Of a stretch of DNA of 35,355 nt, positions 5,208 to 30,445 are shown piece after piece (the first letter of the stretch is position 1; every line of letters starts with the position of its first letter). Below the pieces are notes generated by a model. It ran no database searches. It saw only the letters and a program-made list of their open reading frames with translations, and was not told where the DNA came from. Both the position numbers and the translations under genes were made by a program. This DNA comes from Deinococcales bacterium (GTDB lineage: Bacteria > Deinococcota > Deinococci > Deinococcales > JAAFIG01): positions 1 through 35,355 of the forward strand of contig JAYWGM010000027.1 in the NCBI GenBank assembly GCA_043778225.1. Reading direction: 5' to 3'.

Positions 5208-5247
5208 GGCTCGAGTATAGAAGAAAATAAAATGATAACCTTAATAG

Positions 5248-5766: not shown

Positions 5767-5788
5767 AATTTGGTATAAACTAAGCTGT

Positions 5789-7210: not shown

Positions 7211-7247
7211 ACTCCCTTTTTTGTCTTGGGTGCGTTACAATGGTTCT

Positions 7248-7676
7248 ATGGCAGACATCCTAACCGCCGATGATTCGGAACAAATTCGCAGTCTCCTCGA
7301 GATGATTCTCTCGGCAGATGGGCATAACGTGATTCAAACCAACGATGGTCGGGCAGCCTTGGCTTGGCTCAAAGACAACACCCCAGACCTGATGATTCTT
7401 GATGTCACAATGCCCTACTTGGATGGAATCGAAGTCTGCTCTCGAGCCAAGCGGGTCTCGAGGTTGCGGGCTACGCCAATTATTATTTTGACCGCCCACA
7501 CCGATGACGAATCGCGCCAACGGGCTAAACTGGCTGGAGCAGATGCCTTTGTCAATAAACCCCTGTCTGGTAAAAACTTGCGCTCGACCATTCAAGAAAT
7601 GCTGGTCAAACGCAAAGAATTAAAAGCCAAAATGGATGCCGAAGATGCAGCTGCCTCGCCGGATGCGGCGTTTTAA
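7248..7676 (+). CDS. Single-domain (CheY-like) response regulator
   Basis: ILTADD, LMILDVTMPYLDG, IILTA, FVNKP; TACAAT 6 nt before ATG 7248. Confidence 0.92.
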   Translation: MADILTADDSEQIRSLLEMILSADGHNVIQTNDGRAALAWLKDNTPDLMILDVTMPYLDGIEVCSRAKRVSRLRATPIIILTAHTDDESRQRAKLAGADAFVNKPLSGKNLRSTIQEMLVKRKELKAKMDAEDAAASPDAAF

Positions 7677-9085
7677 GATAAATTGCTGATAAATTTATGC
7701 CACCCGCTCGAGGCTTCGGGCAGGGCATCGCGCTCGGTTTCGGGTTGCAAGACACCATCGGCATAGGCACGCACCACCAATTGATGTGGACCTGCGGCGG
7801 GTGTCCATGGGCTGCGCCATTGTGTCCAAGCATATTTTGAACGGCGCGGTAAAATTTCAGCAACAACCCAGTTCAAACCGCCGTCGCTCGAGACCTCAAC
7901 TTTGGTGATGGTGGTGTTCCCCGAAAAGGCAATCCCCGAAATTTCTTTAATCGCATCGGCTTTTAGAAAGCCAGCGTTTTCGTTGGGGCTGTCGATGCGG
8001 CTCATGGTTTGGGCATACGCCTCCTTGCTCCAGCCACGTTCGACCCAATAACCCACTTGGTCGGTGGCAGACAGTTCAATGCCCGTAATCCAACGCGGTT
8101 GTTTCATGCCAAGTCGTCCGGGGATAATGACACGCAATGGAAAACCGTGCTTTTGCGATAACGGCTCGTAATTCATGGCATAGACCAGCATCACATCCTG
8201 CTCGAGGGCGGCTTGGAGTGGCAGGGATTCAGTATATCCATCGGCAGCTTTCCACAACAAAAACCGTGCTTCTTTTTGTATACCAACCTCGAGCAACAAG
8301 TCGCTCAGGGCAAAACCAGTCCAGATTGCGTTGCCAATTAAGCCGCCACCAACCGCATTAGAAATACAGACCATCGTGGCTTCTAAATCTCGAGCCGGAC
8401 GGACTTGGAGGTCTTCGAGGGTATAGCTTTTTTTACTTTTGACCAAGCCTTTGATTTCTAAATTCCAATTTTTTGCCTCGAGTTTTGGGTCAAAGGCTTC
8501 AAGGTTTTTAGAAATACTATAAAAGTCGGCTTGTGGCGTAATTCCCAAGGGCAACTTGGCGTTGCGAACGGCTGCCACGGCTGGGGTCGAGCTTGGAAAA
8601 AGGGTACGAACCAGTGCCGCCGCCCCACCAAAAACCAATGTACCACTGCCAACACTGAGCCACTTTAAGCTGCTGCGCCGCGAGTCAGAAAAACCCGCAA
8701 CCTGAGACTCGAGTAAAATCCGAATCCCCAAGTAAACCAGCGCGGTTGGAATGGCTACCCAGAACGGCACAAGCCATAAGCAAACCAGCAACACCACTAC
8801 GCTTGCAATCAGTGGGCTGACCACGCCCAAGGCACTGAGCAGCACCAACCACAGCCCAAGGCTGCCGGCAAAAGCAAAAACCTTGCCGCCAGCCCCATAG
8901 CCAAGAAAGCGATGAATGATTTGAAACATTTGTGGTGTTCCCAAAAACTGGGTTAAGCGGTTAAATAATTCTTGCAATGGAAATGGCGCACTCAGCAACA
9001 AGCGTGCCAGTAAACCCAGAACAGTGATCAGAACCACCGCATTAAAACCACGCAACCAAGCTGCCAGATTCCAAGTTATTTTCAT
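7673..9085 (-). CDS. Membrane-anchored sulfite oxidase-family molybdopterin oxidoreductase
   Basis: N-terminal TM bundle, internal Tat-like SRRSSLK, Moco Cys in MVCISN, HGFPLRVIIPG, GYWVERGW, C-terminal Ig-like dimerisation domain. Confidence 0.9.
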   Translation of the reverse strand: MKITWNLAAWLRGFNAVVLITVLGLLARLLLSAPFPLQELFNRLTQFLGTPQMFQIIHRFLGYGAGGKVFAFAGSLGLWLVLLSALGVVSPLIASVVVLLVCLWLVPFWVAIPTALVYLGIRILLESQVAGFSDSRRSSLKWLSVGSGTLVFGGAAALVRTLFPSSTPAVAAVRNAKLPLGITPQADFYSISKNLEAFDPKLEAKNWNLEIKGLVKSKKSYTLEDLQVRPARDLEATMVCISNAVGGGLIGNAIWTGFALSDLLLEVGIQKEARFLLWKAADGYTESLPLQAALEQDVMLVYAMNYEPLSQKHGFPLRVIIPGRLGMKQPRWITGIELSATDQVGYWVERGWSKEAYAQTMSRIDSPNENAGFLKADAIKEISGIAFSGNTTITKVEVSSDGGLNWVVAEILPRRSKYAWTQWRSPWTPAAGPHQLVVRAYADGVLQPETERDALPEASSGWHKFISNLS

Positions 9086-9095
9086 ACCTAAGACA

Positions 9096-9173
9096 TACGC
9101 GATACCCAACCCTTTTGGACTCGAGCCTCAAAGTCAACTCGAGTTCACATCCAAAATAATTTATGGCTTCGTA
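9096..9173. promoter_or_regulatory. Pair of divergent ECF-sigma-type promoters
   Basis: Plus strand: CATCC(9148-9152)-N17-CGTA(9170-9173). Minus strand: AGTCC(9121-9117)-N17-CGTA(9099-9096). Confidence 0.55.
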
Positions 9174-9220
9174 CATCCAAAGTGAGAATGGAAGACTTCC
9201 GTTCAAGCTCTGGAGGATTT

Positions 9221-9940
9221 ATGAAAAAAGTAATGTTCTTAGCAGTTCTTGGTGCAGCAACGGTTTCATTGGCTTTGGCAAATCAAATGCAGAAAGTTGG
9301 CTATGTGCGTGTGGTTCATGCCATTTCCGATGCCCCTGCGGTGGATGTCTACTTAAAAGGCATGGACGGCATGGAGATTAAAACCGTCGATGGCGCACCG
9401 TACACTGGCGTGACCTCGTATGGTGATGTCCCAGTTGGTAAGTACGATGTCACCGTCACCGTGGCAAAGGACAAAGCAGCCGTGTTGTTCAAAGTACCAG
9501 GCTTTGAAGTCAAAGCCTCGACTTATACCACTGTTGCCGCCGTCAATTTGGCAGCCGACCGCGCTCTACAAATTTTTAATGACCGCGCTCCAAACCGCAA
9601 CAAAGACAAAGCCCAAATCACGGTTTACCACCTCTCGTACAAGTCGCCAAATGTGGATGCCCTTGCCCCAGACTTAATGAACGCTAAAGTGATTAAAAAC
9701 CTGATGTACCGTAAAAGCCAAACTGTTTTGGTCAGCCCAATGGGTGTCAACTTAAACGTTGTTCCGGCTGGCGCAATGACCCCAGTGGTTTTTAACCTCA
9801 AAGGCATCAGTGTAGCGGGTGGCAAGTCCTACAGCGTCTTTGCGCTTGGTCTGCTCGATGGCAAAGATGCGGCTGCCTTTAAGCTCCAACCCAACGAAGA
9901 TAAAGTGGTCAAAGGTTCAATGGGCTTTGGCAGCAAGTAA
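9221..9940 (+). CDS. Secreted DUF4397-domain protein
   Basis: SD GGAGG, signal peptide MKKVMFLAVLGAATVSLALA, VRVVHAISDAPAVDVY and a second repeat ITVYHLSYKSPNVDA. Confidence 0.85.
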   Translation: MKKVMFLAVLGAATVSLALANQMQKVGYVRVVHAISDAPAVDVYLKGMDGMEIKTVDGAPYTGVTSYGDVPVGKYDVTVTVAKDKAAVLFKVPGFEVKASTYTTVAAVNLAADRALQIFNDRAPNRNKDKAQITVYHLSYKSPNVDALAPDLMNAKVIKNLMYRKSQTVLVSPMGVNLNVVPAGAMTPVVFNLKGISVAGGKSYSVFALGLLDGKDAAAFKLQPNEDKVVKGSMGFGSK

Positions 9941-9955
9941 TACCAAAGCACCTTA

Positions 9956-9985
9956 ACCCCCTCGAGACTCGAGGGGGTCTTTATT
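9956..9985. terminator. Intrinsic terminator between convergent genes
   Basis: ACCCCCTCGAG-A-CTCGAGGGGGT inverted repeat followed by CTTTATTT. Confidence 0.8.
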
Positions 9986-11067
9986 TATACAAACCGACCA
10001 TTTTCTTGAAAAACCACGCCATCCATAGTAATTCTGCCACTGGCTCGCAAGTCCATAATTAAATCCCAGTGCAGCGCACTTTTATTTAAGCCGCCGCATT
10101 CTGGGTAACTTGCACCAATGGCTAAATGGGCTGTACCACCAATTTTCTCGTCAAATAAAATGTTTTTGGTGGCTTGGGTAATGCCAAAATTCGTACCGAT
10201 GCCAATTTCGCCTAAAAAACGTGCGCCTTGGTCTATCTCGAGGGCTGATTGTAAGTAATCGTTGCCCTCTTCGGCGCTGGCTTTAATCACTTTGCCATCT
10301 TTGAACCACAGTTCGACCCCAGAAACCAGAAACCCCGAAAAACTCGAGGGAATTGTAAAGCGCACCACCCCATTGGCACTGTTTTCGATGGGGCTGGTAA
10401 AAATTTCGCCAGACGGCATATTGCGTTTGCCATCCGAGTTTTGCCATGTCCGCCCAGCCACCGACATTGTGATGTCTGTACCGGGGGCTTCTAAACGCAC
10501 TGTTTTGGCATTTTTAACCCGCTCGACTAATTTTTCCTGCATCGCACGAATCTCAATCCAACCTTTCCATGGATCATCGAGGTTCAAAAACATTGCCCCA
10601 ATCACAAAGCGCTCGAATTGCTCGAGGCTCATACCAGCATCTTTGGCGTAGCCTTCGGTTGGAAACAAGGTAATGCACCAGCGTTTGCCGGCTCGAGCCG
10701 CGCTGAGTTGCCCAAGGGCTTTGCGGTGACGCATCAGGTTCTCGGGCTTGATTCGCTCCAAACCGCGCAAATCCGATTCGGCTTCGATTCTTAAAAAAGC
10801 ATCGGCATGGCGCATCTGTTCGATTTCGGCTTTGGGCAGGGTATCCAAATGAATCTCTTTGGCATACTGATGAAAATCCAAAGTTTGCCCCGGATAACCA
10901 AGCCGAAAAAGTGGAAAGGCATCGCAGTACAAAATGGCATTGTGCAGCACCCGTACCAAAGGCTCGGCAAGCGTATTGGTTTGAATCAAGATGGTCTCGC
11001 CCGGCGAAACCTCGAGACAGTAATCGGTGAGGAGTCGCGCCCATCTCGAGAGGAAAATATCTTGCAC
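9985..11067 (-). CDS. Aminopeptidase, M29 (aminopeptidase T/PepS) family
   Basis: NMPSGEIFTSP, GEIGIGTN, LFDEKIGGTAHLAIG, SALHWDLI. Likely GTG start at 11067 with TACAAT 6 nt upstream. Confidence 0.93.
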   Translation of the reverse strand: MQDIFLSRWARLLTDYCLEVSPGETILIQTNTLAEPLVRVLHNAILYCDAFPLFRLGYPGQTLDFHQYAKEIHLDTLPKAEIEQMRHADAFLRIEAESDLRGLERIKPENLMRHRKALGQLSAARAGKRWCITLFPTEGYAKDAGMSLEQFERFVIGAMFLNLDDPWKGWIEIRAMQEKLVERVKNAKTVRLEAPGTDITMSVAGRTWQNSDGKRNMPSGEIFTSPIENSANGVVRFTIPSSFSGFLVSGVELWFKDGKVIKASAEEGNDYLQSALEIDQGARFLGEIGIGTNFGITQATKNILFDEKIGGTAHLAIGASYPECGGLNKSALHWDLIMDLRASGRITMDGVVFQENGRFV

Positions 11068-11094
11068 TTGTGTATTGTAGTACAAATTGCAGCT

Positions 11095-12639
11095 TTAAGC
11101 CTTGTTGTGGCGTTCGTATTGCCAAACAGCATTGGAATCCAGTCGATAAGCACCATGATTTGCTTGTAGACTTGCTTGCCAACCAAGCATCTGACGCAGC
11201 ATTTGTACCAATACCGAAAGCCGCCGCTTGGCTTTTTGTAAATCAAGACCTTGGTATAAGGCTGCACAAATTTGAGTCATCGAACAAAAACCTTGATGCT
11301 CAAGCAAAAACACCAAAAGTTCAGTCATTTTATGGCTGAGCATAATCGGGACATCGTTGACTTGCACCAGCAACGAATCTTGGGTTTCGACCCGCACCAC
11401 CAAATCGGTCTGGTATACAAGTGGCACTGGTTTTTGTGGCAATAACGCCAAGAGTTCTGGAAATCGTAGCGCCTCTTCTCGAGCCGCCAAAGACTCGAGC
11501 GGCAAGCCAACCAGCAGCGCTTTTGCCAAGTCGGGGTTTCCTGCTTGCCGAGCCAATTCGCCTTGCAACAAAGCCACCGACCAACGCACCGACTCTTTTT
11601 GTGGGTTGCTGATTTGGGCTAACGTGTGGCTGACTTCTTGGGGTGAATGGACTGCCAACAAAACTTGAGCTTTGGTCAGCCATAAACTGTCTTGCTCGAG
11701 TTGGTCTTGGTGAAAAGCATCCTCGAGAATTTTAAGGGCTTGGTTGGCGCGACCCGACAACAAATAAACCCGAGCCAAACCTCGGTAGGCATTGGTGCGT
11801 TCAAAACTCCCTTGGGCTTGGGAGAGGGCTTTTTTGTAGGCGGCTTCGGCTCGAGACCACTGACCACGCACCCGCCGCGATAAGGCAATCCCATTCCAAG
11901 CCGATGCCCGATGCGTTGCCGCCGATGGATTGCGTGAAACCCGCTCTAGCTCGAGAAAATACCCTTCAGCTTGGGGTAAAAAGTGGCGCTGGGCATCTAC
12001 CCCAAGGTTGTATAAAATATGAGCCGTGGTCTGCGCTCGGTGCTTGACCAACGGCAGCGCTTCTTGCCAAACGCTTTGGGCTTTGGCAGATAAGCCAGCT
12101 TCCGACAGGCAATAACCATAGTTAATTAGCCCTCGAGCCAAACCGATGTTTTTTAAGAGTGGCAAGCCTTTTTGAAAACTGGCTTGCCATTCTGGCAATT
12201 GTAATTCAAACAACGCCCAACCTAGCCAAGTGTAGGCTCGCCCAAGATTTTCGTTGTGCAGCCGCAACAATAAAGGCTCGAGTCTGGCTTTCATGTCGCT
12301 AAAACGACTGTGCATGGTCAAAAAACCAACATACTCAAGTTCGAGTTCGGCATATTCAGACGGGCTGCACAGGTTTTTGGTTTGCTCGAGAAACCCCAAT
12401 AATTCTGGCTCGAGTTTATTTAAGGACAACAACTGCATATACATTCGCCGGCAAGGATGCAGCTTTAAGCGCTGCTCGAGTGGAATTTTTTGCATCAACT
12501 CGAGCAGCACCGCGTACTGGCTGGCGGTCTGCAAATGCTTCAAAGCCTGTTCCAGCAGATTTGCGGCTTGGATAAAACGCAAATGGTGCAACAGCAGCAA
12601 AAACGACTTCTCGACATCAGCCAAACTGATTTTGAACAC
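11095..12639 (-). CDS. TPR-repeat protein with C-terminal OmpR/SARP-like winged-helix domain (putative transcriptional regulator)
   Basis: TPR-like helices (ARGLINYGYCL, AHILYNLG, AWNGIAL, AYRGLARVY); C-terminal ELLVFLLEH...ICAALY...LSVLVQMLRQMLG...GAYRL. Confidence 0.75.
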   Translation of the reverse strand: MFKISLADVEKSFLLLLHHLRFIQAANLLEQALKHLQTASQYAVLLELMQKIPLEQRLKLHPCRRMYMQLLSLNKLEPELLGFLEQTKNLCSPSEYAELELEYVGFLTMHSRFSDMKARLEPLLLRLHNENLGRAYTWLGWALFELQLPEWQASFQKGLPLLKNIGLARGLINYGYCLSEAGLSAKAQSVWQEALPLVKHRAQTTAHILYNLGVDAQRHFLPQAEGYFLELERVSRNPSAATHRASAWNGIALSRRVRGQWSRAEAAYKKALSQAQGSFERTNAYRGLARVYLLSGRANQALKILEDAFHQDQLEQDSLWLTKAQVLLAVHSPQEVSHTLAQISNPQKESVRWSVALLQGELARQAGNPDLAKALLVGLPLESLAAREEALRFPELLALLPQKPVPLVYQTDLVVRVETQDSLLVQVNDVPIMLSHKMTELLVFLLEHQGFCSMTQICAALYQGLDLQKAKRRLSVLVQMLRQMLGWQASLQANHGAYRLDSNAVWQYERHNKA

Positions 12640-12658
12640 ATCGTCATTGTGTCATAAA

Positions 12659-12826
12659 TCAGCAACCTATGGCACAAGGCTTAGGGTCTTCGACCAACTG
12701 GTACAGATTTGGGGCTGACTTGACTTGGGTCATCTTAACGGCTGCCAAAGCTCCAAAATAGGCTGCGAAACCAGCCACCAATGCAACCACCAAAATTTGC
12801 TTACCAACCTTTATGCTACGATTCAT
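12659..12826 (-). CDS. 55-aa secreted or membrane peptide ending in PKPCAIGC
   Basis: SD GGAGG, ATG at 12826; basic N-terminus and hydrophobic stretch (ILVVALVAGFAAYFGALAAV); stops 19 nt upstream of the TPR regulator start. Confidence 0.75.
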   Translation of the reverse strand: MNRSIKVGKQILVVALVAGFAAYFGALAAVKMTQVKSAPNLYQLVEDPKPCAIGC

Positions 12827-13018
12827 AACAACCTCCAGATACGGGGGAATGGAGGGGTGCAAAGGCGACCAAGCAATTTGCACCCCCAAGACGAAAGCCG
12901 GAAAAGCGCCACACGTGCAGTCTGGCTCGAGTCAAAATAAGTGCTTAAACGCCCCGATTCAATCCGCACAACAAGCTGCTCGAGCGCAAGCCCGCCTAAA
13001 TTTGCTAAACTACAGAGT

Positions 13019-13195
13019 ATGACCAAGTTCATCATCGAAGAGCATTCAGACGGTTTTGTGGCTTACCCACTTGGTATTCATGGGGTTGTGGTCGGTCAAG
13101 GCGATTCTCGAGAAGAAGCCCTTGAAGATGCACGGTCAGCTTTAGAATTTCATATTGAAACCTTTGCTTGTGAAATGAATTCGAGACGACTATAA
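13019..13195 (+). CDS. HicB-family antitoxin-like protein (short, no HicA partner seen)
   Basis: IIEEHSDGFVAYPLG..GVVVGQGDSREEALEDARSALEFHIETF; TAAACT 7 nt before ATG 13019. Confidence 0.8.
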   Translation: MTKFIIEEHSDGFVAYPLGIHGVVVGQGDSREEALEDARSALEFHIETFACEMNSRRL

Positions 13196-13204
13196 TTTTT
13201 TGTT

Positions 13205-13438
13205 ATGAACACTCCCCTCGAGTTACCCAAAGAACTTGAAGTTGCGCTGATGAGCATAGCCACTCGAGAAAACCGAACCGTCAACGAACTGGTACAAGAT
13301 GCTTTGCAACATTTTGCCCAAGAACACACCAAGCCAACCCCAAGTTGGTTAGGCATTGCCGAAGGTGAACCCGATTTATCACAGCGCGTAGATGAACTTT
13401 TATTCAAAGATAACGGTTGTCTAGGTTTTGTAGGGTAG
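13205..13438 (+). CDS. CopG/ribbon-helix-helix (VapB-like) antitoxin-like protein
   Basis: LELPKELEVALMSIATRENRTVNELVQDAL RHH pattern; C-terminal LGIAEGEPDLSQRVDELL. Confidence 0.7.
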   Translation: MNTPLELPKELEVALMSIATRENRTVNELVQDALQHFAQEHTKPTPSWLGIAEGEPDLSQRVDELLFKDNGCLGFVG

Positions 13439-13630
13439 CAATTCATCCACTTTTTCGGAAACATCCGAGTGACCACTCGAGAAAGCTCCTGCGTATTTGG
13501 ATTTTATTTTTTGATGCCCTAAAGGTTCAAGAATAGTTACCAATGCCCGATGGGTGGTTGTTAAATTTAGTGACTCGTGCAGTGTGACTTGACCACTTGC
13601 AGAGATTGAGGCATTGATGGTCTTTTGCAT
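13421..13630 (-). CDS. Small antitoxin-like protein (AF2212/DUF104-like N-terminus, VapB-like tail)
   Basis: TINASISASGQVTLHESL...RALVTIL; tail AGAFSSGHSDVSEKVDELL; TATAGT 6 nt before the ATG. Confidence 0.6.
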   Translation of the reverse strand: MQKTINASISASGQVTLHESLNLTTTHRALVTILEPLGHQKIKSKYAGAFSSGHSDVSEKVDELLPYKT

Positions 13631-13670
13631 AGCAGGACTATAGCACTTGCGCCCAAGTCTACATCAGTAG

Positions 13671-14303
13671 TCATGTTGACGCTCTTGTTAGAGTAATCGT
13701 ACCTATGCGGGGTCTACCAATGGTATGAAATCGCCCAGACATTTTGATTGCGCGTTTTGTATCGCTTGGGTCATATTCAATATCAAGCATAACAAATCCA
13801 CGCCAGCTTTGCTCTTTTCCATTATTTGGAGAAGCTAATGTGACTTGATAAAAGACAAAAATATTATCCCCTACCCAACCCGAATAGATTGAATTCCAAG
13901 TTCGCTCTTGAGCAGTTCTGTCTATACCGTTCTTCAATACAACTTGAAAATCTTCAATAGGTTCAACTTTTACAGTTCCTTTAATTCGTTCTCTACGTTC
14001 TTCCGTTATTACAGATTCAACATACTCCCACTCATCTTCGAGCAATCTATGAATTTCATTGTCAGTTTTGTATTCATCTACACCTATACTTTTAACATTG
14101 ACAAATATAACTATAATAAAAATCGGAAAGCCAAGAATTAAAAGAAACGCGAAGATTCTTTGTTCAAAAGGCTCAGAACCTTGTAAAATAGGAGTTCCAA
14201 AAAGCAATGCTAAAAAGTAAACTACAACAGCTAAAATGTATAAAGGGCGAGTTCTTAAATACTTAAATACCAGTTGAAAAAAACTAAAGTAATCTGACAC
14301 CAT
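13671..14303 (-). CDS. Two-TM protein with beta-strand-rich C-terminal domain (Cap15/S-2TM-beta-like)
   Basis: Two hydrophobic helices, then EWEY...KGTVKV...FVFYQ...WRGFVMLD...MSGRFHT...GTITLTR; AT-rich; SD AAGGAG. Confidence 0.6.
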   Translation of the reverse strand: MVSDYFSFFQLVFKYLRTRPLYILAVVVYFLALLFGTPILQGSEPFEQRIFAFLLILGFPIFIIVIFVNVKSIGVDEYKTDNEIHRLLEDEWEYVESVITEERRERIKGTVKVEPIEDFQVVLKNGIDRTAQERTWNSIYSGWVGDNIFVFYQVTLASPNNGKEQSWRGFVMLDIEYDPSDTKRAIKMSGRFHTIGRPRIGTITLTRAST

Positions 14304-14321
14304 AAATACAGTCTCCTTTCA

Positions 14322-14356
14322 AAACCAGCCCCTTTTCGTTTTCTCGAGGGCTGTTT
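14322..14356 (-). terminator. Weak terminator-like hairpin between the M15 peptidase and the 2TM gene
   Basis: Minus strand CAGCCCTCGAGAAAACGAAAAGGGGCTG followed by GTTTT, directly before the next SD. Confidence 0.45.
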
Positions 14357-14843
14357 ACTTTTTAGCTTCGACTTTCTTGGGGCTTAACACATCAATCGGC
14401 TGTGGTTTTGTTGGAACAAATCGAAAACTTGTGGAGTATGTTTTTCCAATTGACCAATCTGGCATTTGGATGTGTGGTGCATCCATAAAACCTGTCCAGA
14501 ATGCCCCTGCATCTGCTCCTAGCCTTCTGGCAATCGCGGCTACCGCGATGTATTTAGGGACATCCCAAGTTATACCGCCTTTATTGTTCCTCACGGCAAA
14601 ATCAAAGGCATGAGCGCCTTGCGGTGGGGCAACATTGTGGGCGCTTTGACCAGCTTTTGCATAAGTGACGATTGATCCAGATTTAGTACGTCCTTGGCTG
14701 TAAAGTGCATCTTGTTCTTGATTGGATCGGTGGGTGCAAGTCAAGAAAATTTCTAAGCCCAGTTCAGTCTTGGCGAGTTTTACAAGTTCTACCCAGCATT
14801 CCTTTAAGGCGGGGTGGAGATCGTTAGGGTTTCTGGATGGCAT
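14355..14843 (-). CDS. M15-family peptidoglycan peptidase (L-Ala-D-Glu endopeptidase, CwlK/Ply500-like)
   Basis: HRSNQEQDALYSQGRT, VTYAKAGQSAHN, AFDFA, DAPHIQ zinc-binding motifs; no signal peptide. Confidence 0.9.
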   Translation of the reverse strand: MPSRNPNDLHPALKECWVELVKLAKTELGLEIFLTCTHRSNQEQDALYSQGRTKSGSIVTYAKAGQSAHNVAPPQGAHAFDFAVRNNKGGITWDVPKYIAVAAIARRLGADAGAFWTGFMDAPHIQMPDWSIGKTYSTSFRFVPTKPQPIDVLSPKKVEAKK

Positions 14844-14971
14844 AAATCTTACTCCTTTACTTCAACTAAAATTCTCGAGAACTACCGATTGTCAAAGCCT
14901 ACGCCACACAAATTTCTACAATCCCAACCTCCTTTAACCTCGAGAACACAAGCTAGACTCGAGAAAATTGC

Positions 14972-15754
14972 TTAGTTCCGATTAACGATGACTTGTGCTG
15001 CACAAAGTTTTTCTTCGACAGTCTTAATCATTTCTTCTATGGCTGGGGCTGGCTCGAGGTTGACAAATCCGATGAATTCCATTTCACAGCCGTAACTCGA
15101 GTCAAAAAATGGTTCTAATTTTTCTTGTGAACCCAAAGAATTTCCTAATCTAAATCCGCCTAATTTGTGAAACAGTCTTGAGGCGTGGTGTCTTTCTGTA
15201 GCGGCGGCTATTGCTGAACCTGAACCTTTTATATTGGCTATTGAGTATCCCGAAACCCCAAGCATTGACCCGACTGTTATGCCTTGGCTCGAGCTATCCA
15301 CTGCCATTCCAGCCACTTCAAAAAAACAGTTTTTATTGTGCTGTGCTTTAATAAACGCTTCTATACTGCGCTCATACTGTTCTCGAGTTGGTGACTGCAT
15401 TCGCTCGAGTAGTGGGTACAGGTGCATTTCGGATAATTCTGGGAGTTTCTGACTGGTGTACCAAAATTGGCAACGCATCACACCGCGCAGTCTTTCTTCT
15501 AAATCCAAGACCAAAAAATGCCATGAGCATTCATCGTGTCTCGAGATGTGCCGTCCTGCATTGTCTAAATCGGTGCTTAGAATCGCGCCATCTTCTAAGT
15601 AGACTTGTCCGCGTAATTGTTGGGCTTTGGTTAGCCATGCCTCGTGCAATGCTGTGTTATTTTCAACTCGAGTAAATGCGGCTGGTATTTGGGCGTTGGG
15701 TGGCGCTAAGAGTAAAAAATGGTTGTCCTTAAAAATCCCACTATTGGCAGACAT
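14972..15754 (-). CDS. GNAT-fold acyltransferase, FeeM/LuxI-like (N-acyl amino acid synthase-like)
   Basis: AQQLRGQVYLEDG, D..SWHFLVLD..RLRGVMR, FEVAGMAVD, SRLFHKLGG. ATG at 15754 behind AAGGGGA, 11 nt after the upstream stop. Confidence 0.65.
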   Translation of the reverse strand: MSANSGIFKDNHFLLLAPPNAQIPAAFTRVENNTALHEAWLTKAQQLRGQVYLEDGAILSTDLDNAGRHISRHDECSWHFLVLDLEERLRGVMRCQFWYTSQKLPELSEMHLYPLLERMQSPTREQYERSIEAFIKAQHNKNCFFEVAGMAVDSSSQGITVGSMLGVSGYSIANIKGSGSAIAAATERHHASRLFHKLGGFRLGNSLGSQEKLEPFFDSSYGCEMEFIGFVNLEPAPAIEEMIKTVEEKLCAAQVIVNRN

Positions 15755-15765
15755 GGCTTCCCCTT

Positions 15766-16491
15766 TTATTTCGCGCCGACTTCGGCTTTGGCGTGGGCTA
15801 AGGCTGCATCCCAAATTGGCAGTGGGTACACAGCGGCAAAGCAATCAAATCCAAATTCAATTGCGCTTTCTTCCTCGGGGTAATCTGTCACCACTTTTTG
15901 AATTAACCGAGCCAATTCGTCCGCATGGGCAATGTCTTCTTTGGCATGAACATCAATAAAACGCTGGGCATCCACGGGGAAACCTTTTTTGGCTAGGGCA
16001 ACCTGAGCGCGTTCGGTCAGCACGGGCGTTAAGCACTCGAATAGGTACATATACCCAAGGTAAGCAAAGGGGCTTTCGCGTTCGCCAATCATGCGGCACG
16101 TGGCGCTCATGGCAAAAGATGCAGGGGTGATGCGCCTGTTCCGCGCCCAAGTTTCATCGCCGCCAAGTTTCTTGAAATCCTCGAGTGCCATTTCGCCGTG
16201 GTCAACTTCGGAAAGGTCATGGATAATCATCGGTTTCATCAGGTCTGGGCGGCTTTTGGGTAAGCGCCCAATGGCGGTAAAAGTGGCTTCGGTAACGTGC
16301 GGTCCGTAACTGAAGACCTCAAGCAGGATGCACTTAACGATTTTGGCAACCAGTCCGGGGGCAGTGCCGTCAGCTTCGATTAAGCGCACAGTTTCGGTTT
16401 GTTCAATGCGTTTGTAATGGGCTTGGAGTTTGGCAGCGAGGCGGTCTGTGAAAACAACAGATTCTGCGGTGACTTTCCATTTTTTGCTCAT
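15766..16491 (-). CDS. Heme-oxygenase-like dimetal oxidase (HDO; iron-containing redox enzyme, TenA/PqqC/CADD fold)
   Basis: Ligand pattern HDLSEVDHGEMALEDF (E-x2-H), YMYLFE, FIDVHAKEDIAH (H-x3-D-x2-H); all-helical; 241 aa. Confidence 0.85.
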   Translation of the reverse strand: MSKKWKVTAESVVFTDRLAAKLQAHYKRIEQTETVRLIEADGTAPGLVAKIVKCILLEVFSYGPHVTEATFTAIGRLPKSRPDLMKPMIIHDLSEVDHGEMALEDFKKLGGDETWARNRRITPASFAMSATCRMIGERESPFAYLGYMYLFECLTPVLTERAQVALAKKGFPVDAQRFIDVHAKEDIAHADELARLIQKVVTDYPEEESAIEFGFDCFAAVYPLPIWDAALAHAKAEVGAK

Positions 16492-16538
16492 GGTGGTTCT
16501 CCTTTTGTTGCTCGAGAAGTTTTACGAACCAAAAAAAT

Positions 16539-16859
16539 TTATGGTTCGGCATTCTGAAATCGCACTTCAAAGCCCACGCTTTCCCCAATCCCAAGCGGCA
16601 GAATCTCGACCATAAACGGCGTTTCTTTGCACTGCAAAAATGTTTCAATTGCCACCATCACCGCTTCTGGCGTGGCGTGTAGCACCCCGCTTACGCCAGT
16701 CAAAACATCGTCCAGCACGACACCTTTTGGCTCGAGTCGCACAAATTGAATTCCAGTGATGTCTGCCAGTGCTGTGACTTTGGCTAAATCGGTGGGGCTT
16801 AATGCCCTCGAGCGATTTAAGAACGCTTGTAATTGACCAGAAAGACTTGGTGTTTCTAT
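16539..16859 (-). CDS. 106-aa hypothetical protein with two P-x-G-[VI] motifs; probable non-canonical ATA start
   Basis: The frame is open from ATA 16859 (IETPSLSGQLQAFLNRSRALSPTDLAKVTALADITGIQFVRLEPKGV...VEILPLGI...NAEP). It follows an 11-nt anti-SD match AAGGAGGTGAT. The ORF track shows only the last 67 aa. Confidence 0.6.
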   Translation of the reverse strand: METPSLSGQLQAFLNRSRALSPTDLAKVTALADITGIQFVRLEPKGVVLDDVLTGVSGVLHATPEAVMVAIETFLQCKETPFMVEILPLGIGESVGFEVRFQNAEP

Positions 16860-16893
16860 AACTCATCACCTCCTTTGACTTGAGCTTGAGCAG

Positions 16894-16930
16894 AGTATGC
16901 AAAATAGGGTCTGAAGTTTCCCTGAAGTTT
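16894..16930 (-). promoter_or_regulatory. Promoter with 11-bp-period direct repeat (SARP-type operator) upstream of a -10 box
   Basis: Minus strand AAACTTCAG-GG-AAACTTCAG (16930-16911), an 11-nt gap, then CATACT (16899-16894); no TTGACA-like -35. Confidence 0.6.
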
Positions 16931-17157
16931 TTTGTGGTCTGTGCTGCACAGCTTTAATTCTTTTGAGTGCCCCGAAAAACTCGAGAAAATCCAGAGTTGG
17001 TATAAAAAGTCAATCTTGAGTCTATTAAACGCAGATTATTTTAGCCTGATAAACTTCTCATTTTTAGCTGATAATTTGCCATTGAACCCGTGCTTTACAA
17101 ATCCGATACCGATGTGAGATACTTCTCATTAAGGTAAAGCACGGGAGGTGTCACAGC

Positions 17158-20100
17158 ATGATTCGACTCGAGGTGCTTGGAAAACCAATGGTCAAAATCC
17201 AAAACCGCGAGGCGAAGCTCTACGCCAAAGCTGTGGCACTGCTTGCCTACCTCGCACTTGAGGGGCGCACCAGCCGCCGTAAAATAGCCGAAATGCTTTG
17301 GGCTGGCGCTCCCGATGCGCTCAATAACTTATCGGTCACTCGAGGGCATATTCTGGGCGAACTGGGCGAAACGGCGCTTGTCTCCGACCTCGAGACGATT
17401 GCACTAGGAGCAAATGTTTGGTGCGATGCGCTGGAGTGGCAAAAAGACCCGAGCCGACAAAGTTGGGACTTATACCGAGGCGAATTTTTACAAGATTTAC
17501 GACTGCGCGAATGGAAACGCGGGCTGGGCGAAGAATTTGAGGAATGGGTCGAACAAAAACGAACAGATTTTGCCGTGGAACGTTCTGGATTGGCACTCGC
17601 TTTAGCCAAAGAGGCTTTGCGCTCCGAGCAGTATCTTGATGCACAAGCATGGCTCGAGTTTTCCGCCAATGATTTTAATGAACCACACGAAGAAGCGGTG
17701 CGCTGGCTGATTTGTTTATATGGGTTTCAAAACCAAATCGATAAAACCAGAGCAATCTACTCAAAACTCGATACAAACCTAAAAGAGACTTTGGGGGTTT
17801 GTCCAACCGCCCAGACCCAAGCTGCTTTTTTATTGGCTCGAGATGGGCAATCGGCTGAGTGCTTACATTTGCTCAAGCAAGAATTTGTTTCTAGCCCCAG
17901 ACAAAACCAAAGCGAACCGCTTCTTCTACATACTCCATTTATCGGACGAAATGATGTACTTCGTGATTTATTTGACTTTTTGCTTACTAAACCGAACACT
18001 TTGGCTCGAGCCGTGGGCATTATGGGTGAACCGGGTGCAGGGAAAAGTCGGCTGGCGCTCGAGTTGGCAAGGCGGCTAGAAAGTCATTTGGGTGCAACCT
18101 CATATTTTGTTAAAGCAACTCCCGAGTCTCCTGTTGCCGAACCACTTGCCGAGTTGTGCCGAGCCTTGTTACAACACCGCCCTCAGGCTATAAATCAGCT
18201 TTCCTTGGCTTCACAAAAAGCCATACAGCACCTTTTGCCCGACTTGTATCCAAAAATGAATCACGAGGAAGACCTAAACCACAGCCATCAGCTAAAAAAC
18301 GCACTGCAATCTTTGTTTGCCACACAACAAAACACCATTATCGTTTTTGATGATTTGCAGTGGGCGGATGCAATCACGGTACAACACCTTTTACATATGC
18401 TCGAGGCAGGTTTATACCTTATTTTTACCCAACGCAACACTGAACCAAGCCGTGCTGATACACAAAGCCTTTTGAGATCGGGTGCAAAACAACACAACCT
18501 CGAGCCACTGCTGGTGAGCGACCTCAGCCAATTGCTCAAGCAGTATCATAATCAACACTGGAATGCCAGCAGTTTACGCAAAGCCAGTGGTGGTAATCCG
18601 CTCTATGCGCTCGAGTTACTCCGCAGCCAAGAACCCATGCCACGCCAAGTGCTGCATCTCATTCGAGAACGAGTCAAACGCTTAGGGGCGATTGAACAAC
18701 AGGTACTCGAGGGTTTTGCAGTCTTGGACAGCAGTGCCGATTTGTATTTACTTGCCAAGGTCACCGGACGCAGCCAAGACGAACTGATAGAAGCCACCGA
18801 ACGACTCGAGCATGAGGGGTTACTTGGGCATAATCAGCATTATTTGCACTTAAACCATGACCTGACCAAAGAAGCAGTTTTACAAGACCTTGGGATTGCT
18901 CGCCGTGCGATGCTCCATTTGCGGGCGGCTCGAGCCTTAAAAATGCCGAGCAGTGCAGCACAGCATTATTGGGATGCCAGAAATGCTTGGACACCAAAAG
19001 ACAGGCGATTCGCGCACGCTGCATTTAGTAATCTAGCCAATCGGTATGGAATGCACGGCGAAATAGAAAATGCAGTTGCTTGCTTTTATCAAATTATTGA
19101 AACATCCAGTAGTGATGCTCAAAGGCTCGAATCAAAATTACGCTGTGCAGAATGGCTAATTCGGTATGACAATTACCAGCACGCTTCGGTTATGCTCGAG
19201 CAGACAGTCAATTTACTGCAAGATACCAACGATTCATATTTGCACGCCTATGCCGATGTTGTGAAAGGCAGAATCCTTACAAATAATAGACAACCAATGA
19301 TTGCAAAAATACACCTTGAAGCAGCCCTCTATCGGCTAGAGGGGACTGTTTCACAGCGAAATAAGATACTTCAAGGCGAAGCACAATTGTGGCTTGGCTG
19401 GAATTACCGTGCAATTGGTGAATTAAGTAAAGCAAAAAACTGTTTTGATATAGCTCGAGAAATTTTTCAAGCACTTAATCAACAACGCAATCTTGCCGAG
19501 GCATTGTCGAGTTTGGCAACCATTGCCCATCAAACACAAGACCTTTCAACCGCAGAGCAGTATTGGCGGGCTGCTTTGGTCATTCATGAACAACTCCGAA
19601 ATATATCTGGAATTATTTTAACCATGCACAACCTTGCCATTGCTTTATGGACTCGAGGCATACTGACACAAGCCTTTGATTTTGCAAATAAGGCTGCAAG
19701 TATGGCAGAAGACATTCAGTCTTTTCGGAGTCTTGCCCTAGCCCAAGAATGTAAAGGGTCAATTTTATGCTTACAACATCAGTACGACCAAGCACTTAAA
19801 GAATACCAAAATGCAACCAACGCATGGCAACGAGCCTCTGCATCTATACCGATTGAACTGATATGCAACACCGCCGAGGTATATTTCTACCTGTTTGACT
19901 ATGTAAAAGCACTTCAGGAAATGAATCAATTTTGGGCTGAAGTAGAATTAAAAAGTATTCAAGATTATTCAATCTTGGTCTTTGCACATTTACTATCCTT
20001 TGATATTCATTTGGAACAAAATAACCATCTAGAATGTAAAAAACACACGATAAAAGCCCAAGCACTGATAGAACAAAATGCACTTATGGTCTTTGAGCAT

Positions 20101-20331
20101 GGTTTGAAAGTCCGACAAACCATGCTCAAAAACGATGTCCAAGAAATACATGATCTTATAAAAAAGTACAAGGATCATCTCGAGTACACTGCTCCACTTG
20201 CTCTAACTTTGGCAACAAAACATCAACAATTTGATATGGCAATAGGATTACTTGAACACTGTACCCATCCGTACTGGCAACAGCGAATTGAAAATGTAAT
20301 ACGGGAATTAAGCCCTAATAACCCAACATAG
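17158..20331 (+). CDS. AfsR/SARP-like regulator: N-terminal wHTH + BTAD, central STAND/AAA ATPase, C-terminal TPRs
   Basis: IRLEVLGKP..KAVALLAYLALEG..SRRKIAEMLW; LYRGEFL..FEEWV (BTAD); Walker A GEPGAGKS; Walker B IVFDDLQWAD; SGGNPLY; TPR repeats. Confidence 0.9.
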   Translation: MIRLEVLGKPMVKIQNREAKLYAKAVALLAYLALEGRTSRRKIAEMLWAGAPDALNNLSVTRGHILGELGETALVSDLETIALGANVWCDALEWQKDPSRQSWDLYRGEFLQDLRLREWKRGLGEEFEEWVEQKRTDFAVERSGLALALAKEALRSEQYLDAQAWLEFSANDFNEPHEEAVRWLICLYGFQNQIDKTRAIYSKLDTNLKETLGVCPTAQTQAAFLLARDGQSAECLHLLKQEFVSSPRQNQSEPLLLHTPFIGRNDVLRDLFDFLLTKPNTLARAVGIMGEPGAGKSRLALELARRLESHLGATSYFVKATPESPVAEPLAELCRALLQHRPQAINQLSLASQKAIQHLLPDLYPKMNHEEDLNHSHQLKNALQSLFATQQNTIIVFDDLQWADAITVQHLLHMLEAGLYLIFTQRNTEPSRADTQSLLRSGAKQHNLEPLLVSDLSQLLKQYHNQHWNASSLRKASGGNPLYALELLRSQEPMPRQVLHLIRERVKRLGAIEQQVLEGFAVLDSSADLYLLAKVTGRSQDELIEATERLEHEGLLGHNQHYLHLNHDLTKEAVLQDLGIARRAMLHLRAARALKMPSSAAQHYWDARNAWTPKDRRFAHAAFSNLANRYGMHGEIENAVACFYQIIETSSSDAQRLESKLRCAEWLIRYDNYQHASVMLEQTVNLLQDTNDSYLHAYADVVKGRILTNNRQPMIAKIHLEAALYRLEGTVSQRNKILQGEAQLWLGWNYRAIGELSKAKNCFDIAREIFQALNQQRNLAEALSSLATIAHQTQDLSTAEQYWRAALVIHEQLRNISGIILTMHNLAIALWTRGILTQAFDFANKAASMAEDIQSFRSLALAQECKGSILCLQHQYDQALKEYQNATNAWQRASASIPIELICNTAEVYFYLFDYVKALQEMNQFWAEVELKSIQDYSILVFAHLLSFDIHLEQNNHLECKKHTIKAQALIEQNALMVFEHGLKVRQTMLKNDVQEIHDLIKKYKDHLEYTAPLALTLATKHQQFDMAIGLLEHCTHPYWQQRIENVIRELSPNNPT

Positions 20332-20350
20332 GAGTCTTCAAGGAGGATGT

Positions 20351-21940
20351 ATGAAAAAGCAATTTGGCATGGTCATTTTTATTCTAATGTGTGGTTTTCT
20401 CTTGTTGGTTAATGCTCAATCAACGAAAGAAGGTGTTATTTTTGCTCCAAATATTGTGGCTGGTGGCGATATATTTACAGCACAACTTATATCTAAAAGA
20501 CCAATAGAAAAGTTGATTTTTAACCCAGAAATGCAGCCGCCAGCAAAGTTTTCGTTAATTCCAAAGCCAGAAAATAGGGACGGAGTGTATACCTTTACAT
20601 TACCTAAAGATGTGCTTGGTGGAAATCCAATTGTGGATGCAATGATTAAAGAAGGAAGTACCTCCAAAACTGTAAACCTTCGACCCATACAGCAAAACGC
20701 AGAGCAGTATATTGGTACGATTACAATACTTGGTCAAGATGTTGTAAAGAATCAAACAACACTGGTTTGGCATTCAGCAAATATAACAGGGACAAATGCA
20801 AAGCCAATTCTGGAAGACTCCAAAGCAATTGGTTCTCTTACAGATGCAACTCCTATTTGCAAAGGGAAACTGGAAATTAGAGAAAAAACACCTTACAGTA
20901 GTACAATAGTTTCAGAATTAAACACGTGGGCAGTGAAGAATAGATATGCAGCTGTGGCGGATGTGTATAAAGCTGTGATTGCAGACCCAGTACCGAATTA
21001 TGGCGCACCAGCCTATTCTTTTGACGATGCTTTAGCAGTGGCTGATTTTAGACAAAGTGTCAAATTAGGAAATTCGATAAGCATTCTAAACACTCCCAAA
21101 ATAGCTATTGTGGATACAGGGGTATCTAATTTTTCGGATACGCAACGAGTTAAAGACCCTTATAATTTTATTGCAAATACCACCAATGCATCTGACGATT
21201 TTATGAAAGATTTTGATTTCAAAGGCTCAAGCGGTAACTCATCGAAACTCGAAATGAAGGGTCATGGAAGTATAGTTGCAGAAATTGCTGCTGGTCAAAA
21301 TGGAATCTCTCCTAATTCCACAATTATTCCAGTCAAGGTTTGTGACAAAAATGGCAGTTGCCGATTGGATCATGTCATCAGAGGCGTTTGTTACGCTATT
21401 GCAAAGGTTGGTGCGGGTGGGATAGTCAATATGAGTTTTGGTGGGGATACAGACTCAAATATACTCACGGCAATTATCAATGAGGCAGTGGCGAAGGGGG
21501 TAAAATTTGTTGCTTCAGCAGGCAACAGAGAAGCCTACTACAAAGCAAAAGGTATCTTGGGTGTGCTAATGCAATTTCCTGCTGCAACACAAGTCCGCAA
21601 TCCAAATGAGATTGTTTTGAACAATTTACGATTATCACCAAGCGTTTTTGGCGTTGGTGCAGTCGGAAATTATAATAACGTCTGGATTCCGACTGAATTT
21701 AGTCAGCGTGGTGCGTATGTGGATATTGTTGCACCGGGTGCAGGTATTGTGTTCAACAATAGTAGATACGCCGGAACATCTTTTGCAGCACCTTTTATTG
21801 CAGGGGCGTTGGCATTGGCAGCAGGAAAACAGATGGAGGGTGACCTTAAAGACATTTGTGACCCAAGTTTCAAGATAGATCGCAATAAGCACTCTCCCAT
21901 AGTGGGTTGCGGTATGCTCAATTTATCTTCCATCAAATAA
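20351..21940 (+). CDS. Secreted S8 (subtilisin-like) serine peptidase
   Basis: Signal peptide; catalytic triad IVDTG, GHGSIVA, GTSFAAP; ASAGN oxyanion motif; SD AGGAGG. Confidence 0.92.
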   Translation: MKKQFGMVIFILMCGFLLLVNAQSTKEGVIFAPNIVAGGDIFTAQLISKRPIEKLIFNPEMQPPAKFSLIPKPENRDGVYTFTLPKDVLGGNPIVDAMIKEGSTSKTVNLRPIQQNAEQYIGTITILGQDVVKNQTTLVWHSANITGTNAKPILEDSKAIGSLTDATPICKGKLEIREKTPYSSTIVSELNTWAVKNRYAAVADVYKAVIADPVPNYGAPAYSFDDALAVADFRQSVKLGNSISILNTPKIAIVDTGVSNFSDTQRVKDPYNFIANTTNASDDFMKDFDFKGSSGNSSKLEMKGHGSIVAEIAAGQNGISPNSTIIPVKVCDKNGSCRLDHVIRGVCYAIAKVGAGGIVNMSFGGDTDSNILTAIINEAVAKGVKFVASAGNREAYYKAKGILGVLMQFPAATQVRNPNEIVLNNLRLSPSVFGVGAVGNYNNVWIPTEFSQRGAYVDIVAPGAGIVFNNSRYAGTSFAAPFIAGALALAAGKQMEGDLKDICDPSFKIDRNKHSPIVGCGMLNLSSIK

Positions 21941-21953
21941 TTGTTCTATTTTC

Positions 21954-21982
21954 AACCCTCGAGCATATGTCTCGAGGGTTTC
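21954..21982. terminator. Intrinsic terminator after the subtilase
   Basis: AACCCTCGAG-CATATGT-CTCGAGGGTT inverted repeat. Confidence 0.7.
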
Positions 21983-30323: not shown

Positions 30324-30387
30324 TGTAAAAATCCTATTTATTTATGGGTATAGAGAGTTAGAGCGGGCTTTGCTCACAATTTTTCCT

Positions 30388-30434
30388 CTCGAAACCATCG
30401 TACCAAAATTCTCACCCTCTCGAGGCTCACGGCT
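30388..30434. repeat. 47-bp direct repeat, copy 1 (contains minus-strand extended -10 TGGTACGAT)
   Basis: CTCGAAACCATCGTACCAAAATTCTCACCCTCTCGAGGCTCACGGCT; 43/47 identical to 31255-31301. Confidence 0.85.
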
Positions 30435-30445
30435 GGCATTGTCAT

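Follow-up and report, generated by a model that had tools for sequence, protein, structure and literature searches.

A stretch of DNA of 35,355 nucleotides (nt) from a Deinococcales bacterium (assembly GCA_043778225.1, contig JAYWGM010000027.1, forward strand), called the window here, was analysed around a group of seven genes between positions 13671 and 21940. At the centre of this group are two adjacent genes, one for a heme-oxygenase-like diiron oxidase (HDO) and one for a GNAT acyltransferase with a LuxI/FeeM-like predicted fold. Judged from sequence comparison, this HDO-GNAT pair is a real, conserved and apparently undescribed module. The initial annotation, made from the DNA letters, had placed five genes on the minus strand and two on the plus strand, and the open reading frame (ORF) map recovered all seven. 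The genes and the features between them are given below in order of position, with protein lengths in amino acids (aa) and with SD for a Shine-Dalgarno sequence.

13671-14303, minus strand: 2TM protein, 210 aa, with two N-terminal transmembrane helices and a beta-rich C-terminal domain; cargo.
14355-14843, minus strand: M15-type peptidase, 162 aa, a leaderless L-Ala-D-Glu peptidase (endolysin catalytic domain); cargo.
14860-14879, minus strand: junction motif, conserved and followed by an SD, immediately before the M15 gene; marks the "third slot" of the operon.
14972-15754, minus strand: GNAT, 260 aa counted from the SD-preceded ATG, LuxI/FeeM-like; core gene 2.
15766-16491, minus strand: HDO, 241 aa; core gene 1.
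16539-16859, minus strand: small ORF, 106 aa, first gene of the operon, with ATA where a start codon is expected.
16911-16930, no strand assigned: candidate SARP operator, two perfect 9-nt direct repeats whose starts are 11 nt apart, lying 52-71 nt before the small ORF.
17038-17074, no strand assigned: pair of 15-nt direct repeats with 80% similarity, 22 nt apart, lying 84-120 nt before the STAND start; may be an autoregulatory site.
17158-20331, plus strand: STAND regulator of SARP-like type, 1057 aa, with BTAD, P-loop NTPase and TPR parts; oriented divergently to the operon.
20351-21940, plus strand: secreted S8 subtilase, 529 aa, starting 19 nt after the STAND gene.

The first core gene encodes a complete diiron HDO, in line with what had been proposed from the letters. 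Its product matches the Pfam family PF14518 with 57.7 bits against a cut-off of 28.9 (E 1.7e-15), and it is the sole PF14518 gene of its genome. The AlphaFold model (pLDDT 92.6) shows an all-helical heme-oxygenase-like fold, which Foldseek matches to 3DDE, CADD (TM-score 0.76), BesC, RohS, UndA and HrmI. E58, H65, D186 and H189 do not vary among 20 homologues, and at least 90% of these keep E152 and H182. These three histidines and three carboxylates we take to be the metal ligands, following the spacing of the ligands in CADD. The HDO is 92-97% identical to those of sister species and 58-77% identical across phyla. Sources of homologues in its subfamily include Fibrisoma, Nibrella, Tellurirhabdus and Gemmataceae, with cultured Cytophagales among them. 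Between sister species the ratio of nonsynonymous to synonymous substitution rates (dN/dS) is 0.03-0.09 at a dS of 0.4-0.76, and the gene evolves under strong purifying selection.

The second core gene had been read as a LuxI- or FeeM-like acyltransferase, and its predicted fold bears this out. An AlphaFold model built from an alignment of ten relatives (pLDDT 88.2) was compared with known structures, and its best matches were the acyl-homoserine lactone (AHL) synthases TofI, LasI and RpaI (VIA-align Z 15.6, 15.4 and 15.3) and the N-acyl amino acid synthase FeeM (2G0B, Z 14.5), while ordinary GNATs reached at most 13.3. The alignments span 175-195 residues with the AHL synthases and 176 with 2G0B, and the top Foldseek match is BjaI. 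At the level of sequence the resemblance is faint. The family profile aligns weakly with the N-terminal motif of BjaI, RpaI and LasI (E 0.07-0.8), and the alignment profile finds chance-level matches only among PDB sequences. In the region of the S-adenosylmethionine (SAM) site, placed by the residue roles of the LuxI N-terminus, an Arg and an Asp position align weakly, and the motif LRGxVYLxDGAI shows no Trp where the conserved one would align. Weak Acetyltransf_5, FeeM or Autoind_synth matches occur in 7 of 25 distant family members scanned; P0012 alone lies above a FeeM-type cut-off, and P0055 alone has an Autoind_synth match (E 0.0024). Since it does not match the curated LuxI and FeeM profiles, the GNAT is filed here as working like these enzymes and not as a member of either family.

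The unnamed family to which the GNAT belongs is large, with 689 cluster representatives at E<=1e-3 and 171 at E<=1e-30 in an exhaustive profile search. The GNAT carries an invariant C-terminal motif (D218, C223 and F230), and one family member is fused to a FabA dehydratase. Within the genus the GNAT falls into two allele groups, separated by a dS of 1.2-2.0 with a dN/dS of 0.12-0.26, and it is mosaic: one relative is 96% identical over residues 1-50 and 44% identical over residues 101-150, and the segments 101-150 and 201-232 drop to 31-44% identity. This divergence, set against the adjacent HDO, would fit an exchange of alleles or a diversification of substrate specificity, neither of which is proven.

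The two genes are tightly coupled. As noted from the letters, 11 nt separate the HDO stop from the GNAT start, and an SD lies within this spacer. Among 364 genomes of the phylum, the GNAT occurs in six, all of one genus (this genome and five of the seven others), and in every genus locus with upstream sequence (5/5) the HDO stands directly in front of it. Beyond the genus, a metagenome scan with the HDO profile returned 29 loci, 23 of which have at least 470 nt downstream and are informative. In 18 of these 23, from other lineages, the next gene after the HDO belongs to the GNAT family and has the same orientation (17 by script, with L115 added on inspection). The proposal that the two genes are conserved neighbours therefore holds far beyond this genome, in many phyla of bacteria. 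One locus outside the genus, L100, adds a second GNAT, an acyl-ACP (acyl carrier protein) desaturase, an ACP and a ketosynthase; these neighbours point to fatty-acyl chemistry. The FabA fusion, and the FAD oxidases and fatty-acid desaturases beside acidobacterial GNAT homologues, also speak for lipid chemistry. No paper on an HDO with a LuxI/FeeM-like or GNAT partner was found in full-text literature, a search that had subscription journals outside its coverage, and the core genes have no match in PADLOC, so the earlier statement that the combination is not a named system also stands.

A related arrangement was seen in passing. FeeM domains fused to a cyclic-nucleotide-binding domain lie beside HDO genes in the metagenome loci L098 (1400-2506) and L108 (8350-9573). 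L108 holds a second HDO paralogue, and a cyclase gene was seen in locus L087.

The divergent STAND gene probably encodes a regulator of the operon. The initial annotation called its product a winged-helix, BTAD, ATPase and TPR protein, and Pfam agrees on the P-loop NTPase and TPR parts: AAA_16 matches at E 5.2e-16 (60 bits) and TPR_12 at E 1e-9 (38.9 bits), with a weak NB-ARC match. BTAD scores 21.2 bits against a cut-off of 22.1 and is thus sub-threshold in the window protein, but it is clear (E 3.9e-8, 34.2 bits) in the 40%-identical orthologue at L016, which adjoins a small-ORF/HDO/GNAT operon in the same way. Pfam detects no winged helix in the window protein (no Trans_reg_C match); the STAND protein at L100 has one. 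An AfsR model matches weakly (E 3.5e-4).

Two kinds of evidence connect this gene with the operon. SARP-like STAND genes flank the pair in 4/4 genus loci with enough upstream sequence, L015 and L017 among them, and one lies beside the relic locus L131. With 14 further STAND paralogues in the genome, about one per 270 kb, chance is an unlikely reason for finding STAND genes next to the pair repeatedly. Upstream of the operon, tandem direct repeats of 9-11 nt were found in 5/5 loci and are perfect in three. They are spaced by 11 nt in the window, L016, L017 and L100 and by 22 nt in L015, and their sequences differ between loci. As background, 0.28% of 200-nt windows in this genome hold a perfect 9-mer repeat at an offset of 11, and 0.23% at an offset of 22. 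A classical SARP operator consists of one-turn direct repeats at the -35 region. Within the genus, the repeats and the adjacency support the reading that the STAND gene may drive the operon. Large unknown proteins beside the HDO in L101 and L110 were considered as STAND relatives and rejected, because they are not similar to STAND proteins.

The subtilase behind the STAND gene matches PF00082 (E 8.7e-26) and has an N-terminal, hydrophobic, signal-like stretch in its translation. Its GC content is 0.40, and the palindrome CTCGAG, described below, occurs 0 times in its 1590 nt against 8.3 expected. In the same genome the two closest STAND paralogues (C28, C72) each have an S8 gene immediately behind them and no HDO-GNAT pair, and the STAND gene of L016 is also followed by an S8 gene, 34-36% identical. 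The subtilase thus belongs to the STAND unit and not to the biosynthetic pair, and its place as a fixed part of the proposed system was dropped, since it travels with STAND paralogues that have no such pair.

The first gene of the operon, the small ORF, is open from stop to stop without an ATG, GTG or TTG, and its first plausible start is an ATA 9 nt behind an AAGGAGG SD. Contigs from two runs of one study, both possibly from the source sample, match the assembled sequence, and the sequence at the ATA start is identical in them. The ORF either begins at ATA or has lost its start. It had been described as a 106-aa PxG[VI] protein, and the motifs EPKGVV and LPLGIG are indeed visible in the translation, of an ORF that has no ATG, GTG or TTG start. 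It is present in 2/5 genus loci; the only homologue, in L016, has 106 aa, is 48-51% identical, lies at the equivalent position and begins with ATG. Nonsynonymous differences (pN 0.37) are fewer than synonymous ones (pS 0.79). No family match, no ESM Atlas lead and, in the loci examined, no homologue outside L016 were found. A role as precursor of a ribosomally synthesised and post-translationally modified peptide, or as a Nif11-like leader, was considered and dropped, as no match supported it and only 2/5 genus loci have the ORF.

Downstream of the GNAT the composition of the DNA changes. The palindrome CTCGAG occurs 24,877 times in this genome, once per 162 nt and about nine times as often as the next 6-mer palindrome, and 184 times in the window against about 4 expected. 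Several GC-rich palindromes are nearly absent (GGGCCC 1, GACGTC 1, AGGCCT 1). The abundance of CTCGAG extends to loci from sister species and from one other genus in the family, and a literature search found no description of such hyper-abundance. Three stretches of the window are free of it: 13482-14342, 14349-14873 and 20185-21957. Windows of the two gaps' length are free of it at 0.3% and 1.3% of genomic positions. The M15 gene is low in GC and has no CTCGAG, and the 2TM gene has a GC content of 0.35 and likewise no CTCGAG. The absence of the palindrome marks genes that look foreign by composition.

For the peptidase a Pfam VanY match is sub-threshold, and its identity as a peptidoglycan hydrolase, suggested from the letters, becomes firmer through PHROG endolysin families (E 2.9e-23) and two PDB matches, the Listeria phage L-alanyl-D-glutamate peptidase 2VO9 (E 2.8e-13) and LysB4 (E 1.6e-11). 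It has neither a signal peptide nor a wall-binding domain, and the 140 phage records that match it are all below 60% identity. The 2TM protein has no Pfam, NCBIfam, PHROG, PADLOC or phage match, and among 5.8 billion proteins searched it found itself alone. Two weak homologues occur in the 364 genomes of the phylum, neither adjoining a lysin. In the ESM Atlas its feature score is 0.89-0.93, and residues 79-209 align to Cap15_CD_rec clusters with TM-scores of 0.49/0.64; Pfam gives no Cap15 match even at E<=1.

The initial annotation had counted both genes as a possible lysis or conflict output of the system, and had held that genes never linked elsewhere would be passengers. Neither was found in any other HDO-GNAT locus examined. 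Because they are absent from those loci and foreign by composition, the M15-2TM pair is best regarded as a passenger, and with the 2TM protein an orphan the two were given up as fixed parts.

What does recur is the place where they sit. In L016, L017, L019 (twice) and L131, the GNAT stop or GNAT 3' fragments are succeeded by a motif of about 20 nt that has an SD behind it. In the window a short leftover of a GNAT 3' end stands before the junction, and the M15 gene comes directly after. The motif has one exact copy in its own genome and two near matches at unrelated places; the idea of a genome-wide repeat was rejected, as it is essentially unique there. Different genes stand behind the nine GNAT 3' ends of the genus: M15 in the window; Amidase_2 in L019b and L130; an M23-like gene in L019a, with a GH108 lysozyme further on; a C39_2-like gene in L015; a ParA-like gene in L016; a methyltransferase-like gene in L131; and unknowns in L017 and L018. 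Peptidoglycan hydrolases thus follow clearly at three of the nine junctions (M15 and two Amidase_2) and weakly at two (M23-like and C39_2-like), and the cargo genes of all species are low in GC and poor in the palindrome. The count suggests that the slot recruits cell-wall hydrolases more often than chance, though kinship among the genomes weakens it.

L019 (G130:C54) deserves a separate remark, because its positions 4977-15990 hold a decayed copy of the locus. Behind the conserved upstream TPR gene stands a Big_2 protein where the HDO and the 5' portion of the GNAT would be expected. Two orphan 3' ends of GNAT genes come next, each followed by leaderless wall hydrolases (M23-like, GH108, Amidase_2), and there is a 1013-aa RCC1-repeat protein.

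The whole group lies in a variable island. It extends over about 11.1-22.0 kb, is non-syntenic among species of the genus, and is flanked by core genes, an M29 aminopeptidase on one side and an extracytoplasmic function (ECF) sigma factor with homoserine dehydrogenase on the other. Other genes were seen in and near it. A TPR protein of 514 aa with a winged-helix-like C-terminus is encoded at 11095-12639 (minus strand); two PADLOC models recognise it, PDLC01171 ("TPR repeats containing protein") along the whole protein (E 2.6e-78) and PDLC01092 (E 7e-42). Between this gene and the cargo lie a HicB-like gene (12941-13195, plus strand) and a small gene resembling Arc and other ribbon-helix-helix proteins (13205-13438, plus strand). 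In sister species (L131, L018 and L130) homologues of these two recur next to GNAT fragments or paralogues, with PIN-domain partners. A second low-GC patch, at 29328-31755 (minus strand), encodes a fusion of an Mrr-type restriction endonuclease with a Top1 zinc ribbon, an XisH/XisI pair and a ParE toxin.

Altogether this suggests, with a probability of roughly 0.6, a composite island assembled around two genes that form an undescribed module for a small molecule; the HDO and the GNAT would be coupled in translation and would work jointly on the same molecule. Most likely the GNAT would use acyl-ACP (or acyl-CoA) as donor and attach the fatty acyl group to an amine of the amino-acid type. The diiron HDO would then, or beforehand, oxidise the substrate or product by decarboxylation or desaturation, hydroxylation or N-oxygenation, and the product may be an oxidised N-acyl amino acid or an AHL-like lipid. 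An N-acyl amino acid of enamide, N-hydroxy or nitrile type, as first proposed, would be one such product. Within the genus the operon of small ORF, HDO and GNAT is probably switched on by the divergent SARP-type STAND protein, whose NTPase and TPR part may sense a cue and which may then bind the tandem 9-nt repeats with their 11-nt period, the putative operator. The subtilase and the STAND gene would form a separate recurrent unit. The exchangeable slot behind the GNAT has foreign-looking cargo in this strain, a leaderless endolysin-type peptidase and a membrane protein with two transmembrane helices and a predicted beta-barrel. The two might be expressed along with the metabolite genes through a shared transcript, and they could work as a lysin with a partner that permeabilises the membrane. 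Compared with the initial annotation, the two enzymes, the conservation of their pairing and the lack of a named system have been retained, the STAND/BTAD link has been retained in part, and the M15, 2TM and subtilase genes no longer count as fixed parts.

Several observations weigh against this reading. The first gene of the operon has no canonical start codon. No RNA run that covers the region was found, and scans for promoters and terminators gave sites no more numerous than in shuffled sequence. The GNAT has no Pfam or NCBIfam match at E<=0.01, and so matches neither the curated LuxI nor the curated FeeM model; its likeness to that family rests on the predicted fold and on sub-significant profile matches. 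The STAND/BTAD link, seen in 4/4 genus loci, at one relic and in the upstream repeats, is found in only 1 of 16 scanned loci outside the genus, where L100 has a STAND/winged-helix regulator and others have LuxR-type regulators, two-component systems or ECF sigma factors. Since STAND-S8 paralogues occur without an HDO-GNAT pair, the adjacency to the pair might also be incidental.

The pairing itself is frequent and not obligate, to judge from three sets of loci. By profile, 5 of the 23 informative HDO loci lack a GNAT-family gene: in L098 a Pfam FeeM-domain protein fused to a cNMP-binding (cyclic-nucleotide-binding) domain follows the HDO instead, and L109, L119, L120 and L126 have no GNAT-family gene after the HDO. 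L009 and L018 have GNAT paralogues, 31-33% identical, with no HDO beside them. An HDO lies beside the GNAT in none of 78 acidobacterial loci, the best 78 of 181 confirmed relatives. This last set was found with a narrow alignment of more distant GNAT relatives, which returned acidobacterial loci only and is therefore uninformative on HDO-coupled members in isolate genomes. The neighbours in 19 of these acidobacterial loci that were scanned are FAD-linked oxidases (13/19), membrane fatty-acid desaturases (7/19), PEP-CTERM proteins (4/19) and also glycosyltransferases.

Other explanations use the same genes differently. The locus may be a bacteriolytic arsenal for competition, in which an antibacterial or surfactant N-acyl amino acid, wall hydrolases (M15 here; M23, GH108 and Amidase_2 in sister species) and a secreted protease are deployed under a SARP-type activator against neighbours in a biofilm. 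We hold this to be possible though unlikely. SARPs typically activate antibiotic clusters, hydrolases stand at the three clear and two weak junctions of nine described above, a secreted S8 protease adjoins, and the source runs are labelled as biofilm metagenome. The stieleriacines, which are N-acyl dehydrotyrosines, are reported to alter biofilm composition (PMC7293339). Against these points, the hydrolases have no signal peptide, which leaves their export unexplained; they are found in 0/16 scanned metagenome loci outside the genus; and the cargo genes differ in every species and are foreign by composition. It is rather improbable that the parts are unlinked altogether, with the HDO-GNAT pair remodelling aminolipids as a house-keeping function, the STAND-S8 pair independent of it, and the M15-2TM pair a decayed prophage or mobile remnant in a variable island. 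STAND-S8 pairs without HDO-GNAT, the non-syntenic 11.1-22.0 kb between flanks of core genes, and desaturase and ACP neighbours that fit lipid metabolism are all as this explanation would have them, and the aminolipid N-acyltransferase OlsB belongs to the same clan. However, a module as sporadic as this one, in 6/364 genomes of the phylum and all in one genus, is not what a house-keeping lipid would show, and the periodic repeats in five loci, together with the conserved junction and its SD before the cargo, argue for regulated co-expression.

A more elaborate proposal, which we regard as speculative and quite improbable, has the HDO and GNAT making a diffusible acyl signal of a new class. The diverged mosaic GNAT alleles would set the specificity of the signal (pherotypes), the TPR-STAND protein would be its receptor or an activator, and the 3' slot would deliver leaderless hydrolases and a ligand-gated Cap15-like pore, so that the signal would lead to lysis of self or neighbours in biofilms. 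Less probable again, and in our view very unlikely, is an anti-phage or programmed-death system in which the STAND protein senses infection and sets off a lysis pair, the endolysin and a Cap15-like effector gated by the HDO-GNAT small molecule. The STAND-TPR architecture, the endolysin-type peptidase domain and the resemblance of the 2TM protein to Cap15 receptor/effector clusters in the ESM Atlas would suit such a system, as would the nearby HicB-like and Arc-like genes of toxin-antitoxin type and the TPR protein at 11095-12639 with its PADLOC match (E 2.6e-78). Yet PADLOC-DB 2.0 has no match for the HDO, GNAT, M15, 2TM or small ORF proteins and gives weak generic TPR and subtilase matches for the STAND and S8 proteins, and the N-terminus of the STAND protein is of transcription-factor type and not a nuclease or protease effector. 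Pfam finds no Cap15 domain at E<=1, no nucleotidyltransferase is among the window ORFs, M15 and 2TM are missing from all other HDO-GNAT loci, and the two weak 2TM homologues are not beside lysins. The preferred reading remains the two-gene module in a composite island.

If this is right, the module would matter for its chemistry. LuxI and FeeM enzymes make the best-known bacterial acyl signals and lipoamino acids, and HDOs are a young class with unusual oxidative chemistry, so a coupled pair of the two kinds may offer an untapped chemical family. Because the pair stands beside differing sensors and regulators according to lineage, its product is a possible new signalling or antibiotic lipid. 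The locus also provides a testable candidate pair of regulator and operator outside the actinomycetes, a SARP-type STAND protein with repeats of 11-nt period, and it displays a defined cargo slot that repeatedly takes in cell-wall hydrolases.

The genes at the locus can be compared with several known systems. The catalytic domain of the M15 peptidase matches those of phage L-alanyl-D-glutamate endolysins that act with holins (Ply500, LysB4); unlike a phage lysis cassette, the locus has no wall-binding domain, no phage structural or replication genes in the window, and no phage match for the 2TM protein. The 2TM protein is similar to Cap15 of the cyclic-oligonucleotide-based antiphage signalling system (CBASS) in its layout by ESM Atlas, two transmembrane helices and a beta-barrel, but it has no Pfam Cap15 match, and neither a cyclase nor a nucleotidyltransferase is among the window ORFs. 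The STAND protein has in common with SARP/AfsR-type regulators the BTAD domain (in its orthologue), the AAA_16/NB-ARC and TPR parts, and direct repeats spaced by one helical turn. It differs in coming from a Deinococcota-like genome and not from an actinomycete, in that no winged helix was detected in the window protein, and in that its gene is regularly followed by a subtilase gene.

The HDO shares its fold with the characterised HDOs CADD, BesC, UndA, RohS and HrmI and with 3DDE (TM-score up to 0.76), and the spacing of the six ligands is alike, E-x6-H ... E ... H-x3-D-x2-H, as mapped onto CADD. Its identity to any solved member is at most 20%, and the nearest by sequence is 3DDE (E 1.4e-8), whose function is unknown. 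We know of no characterised HDO that has a LuxI/FeeM-like GNAT as its partner.

In structure the GNAT comes closest to the LuxI-type synthases TofI, LasI, BjaI and RpaI, and its N-terminal motif R..vY..D.....D..SWH....G..R aligns weakly with BjaI, RpaI and LasI. Unlike them, it has no Autoind_synth (PF00765) match at E<=0.01, is 50-60 residues longer, and is coupled to an HDO; we know of no HDO as a LuxI partner and of no LuxI enzyme with the C-terminal Cys motif of this GNAT. There is no LuxR-type receptor gene, and no GerE or Autoind_bind domain among the window ORFs scanned; elsewhere GerE domains do lie near the pair, in a GAF-PAS-GerE gene in L015 and in genes of L107 and L120. FeeM-type N-acyl amino acid synthases have a like fold (Z 14.5), but the window GNAT has no PF21926 or PF13444 match. 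The acidobacterial relatives of the GNAT adjoin PEP-CTERM proteins, desaturases and oxidases, a setting similar to that of PEP-CTERM-linked N-acyl amino acid synthases and of the putative stieleriacine cluster, in which N-acyl amino acid synthases stand with a desaturase and an oxidoreductase (PMC7293339). The window has no PEP-CTERM gene. Here a diiron HDO takes the oxidative part, in place of a flavoprotein or membrane desaturase. Taken together, the locus comes nearest to LuxI and FeeM synthases accompanied by tailoring oxidases, to HDO enzymes and to SARP regulators.

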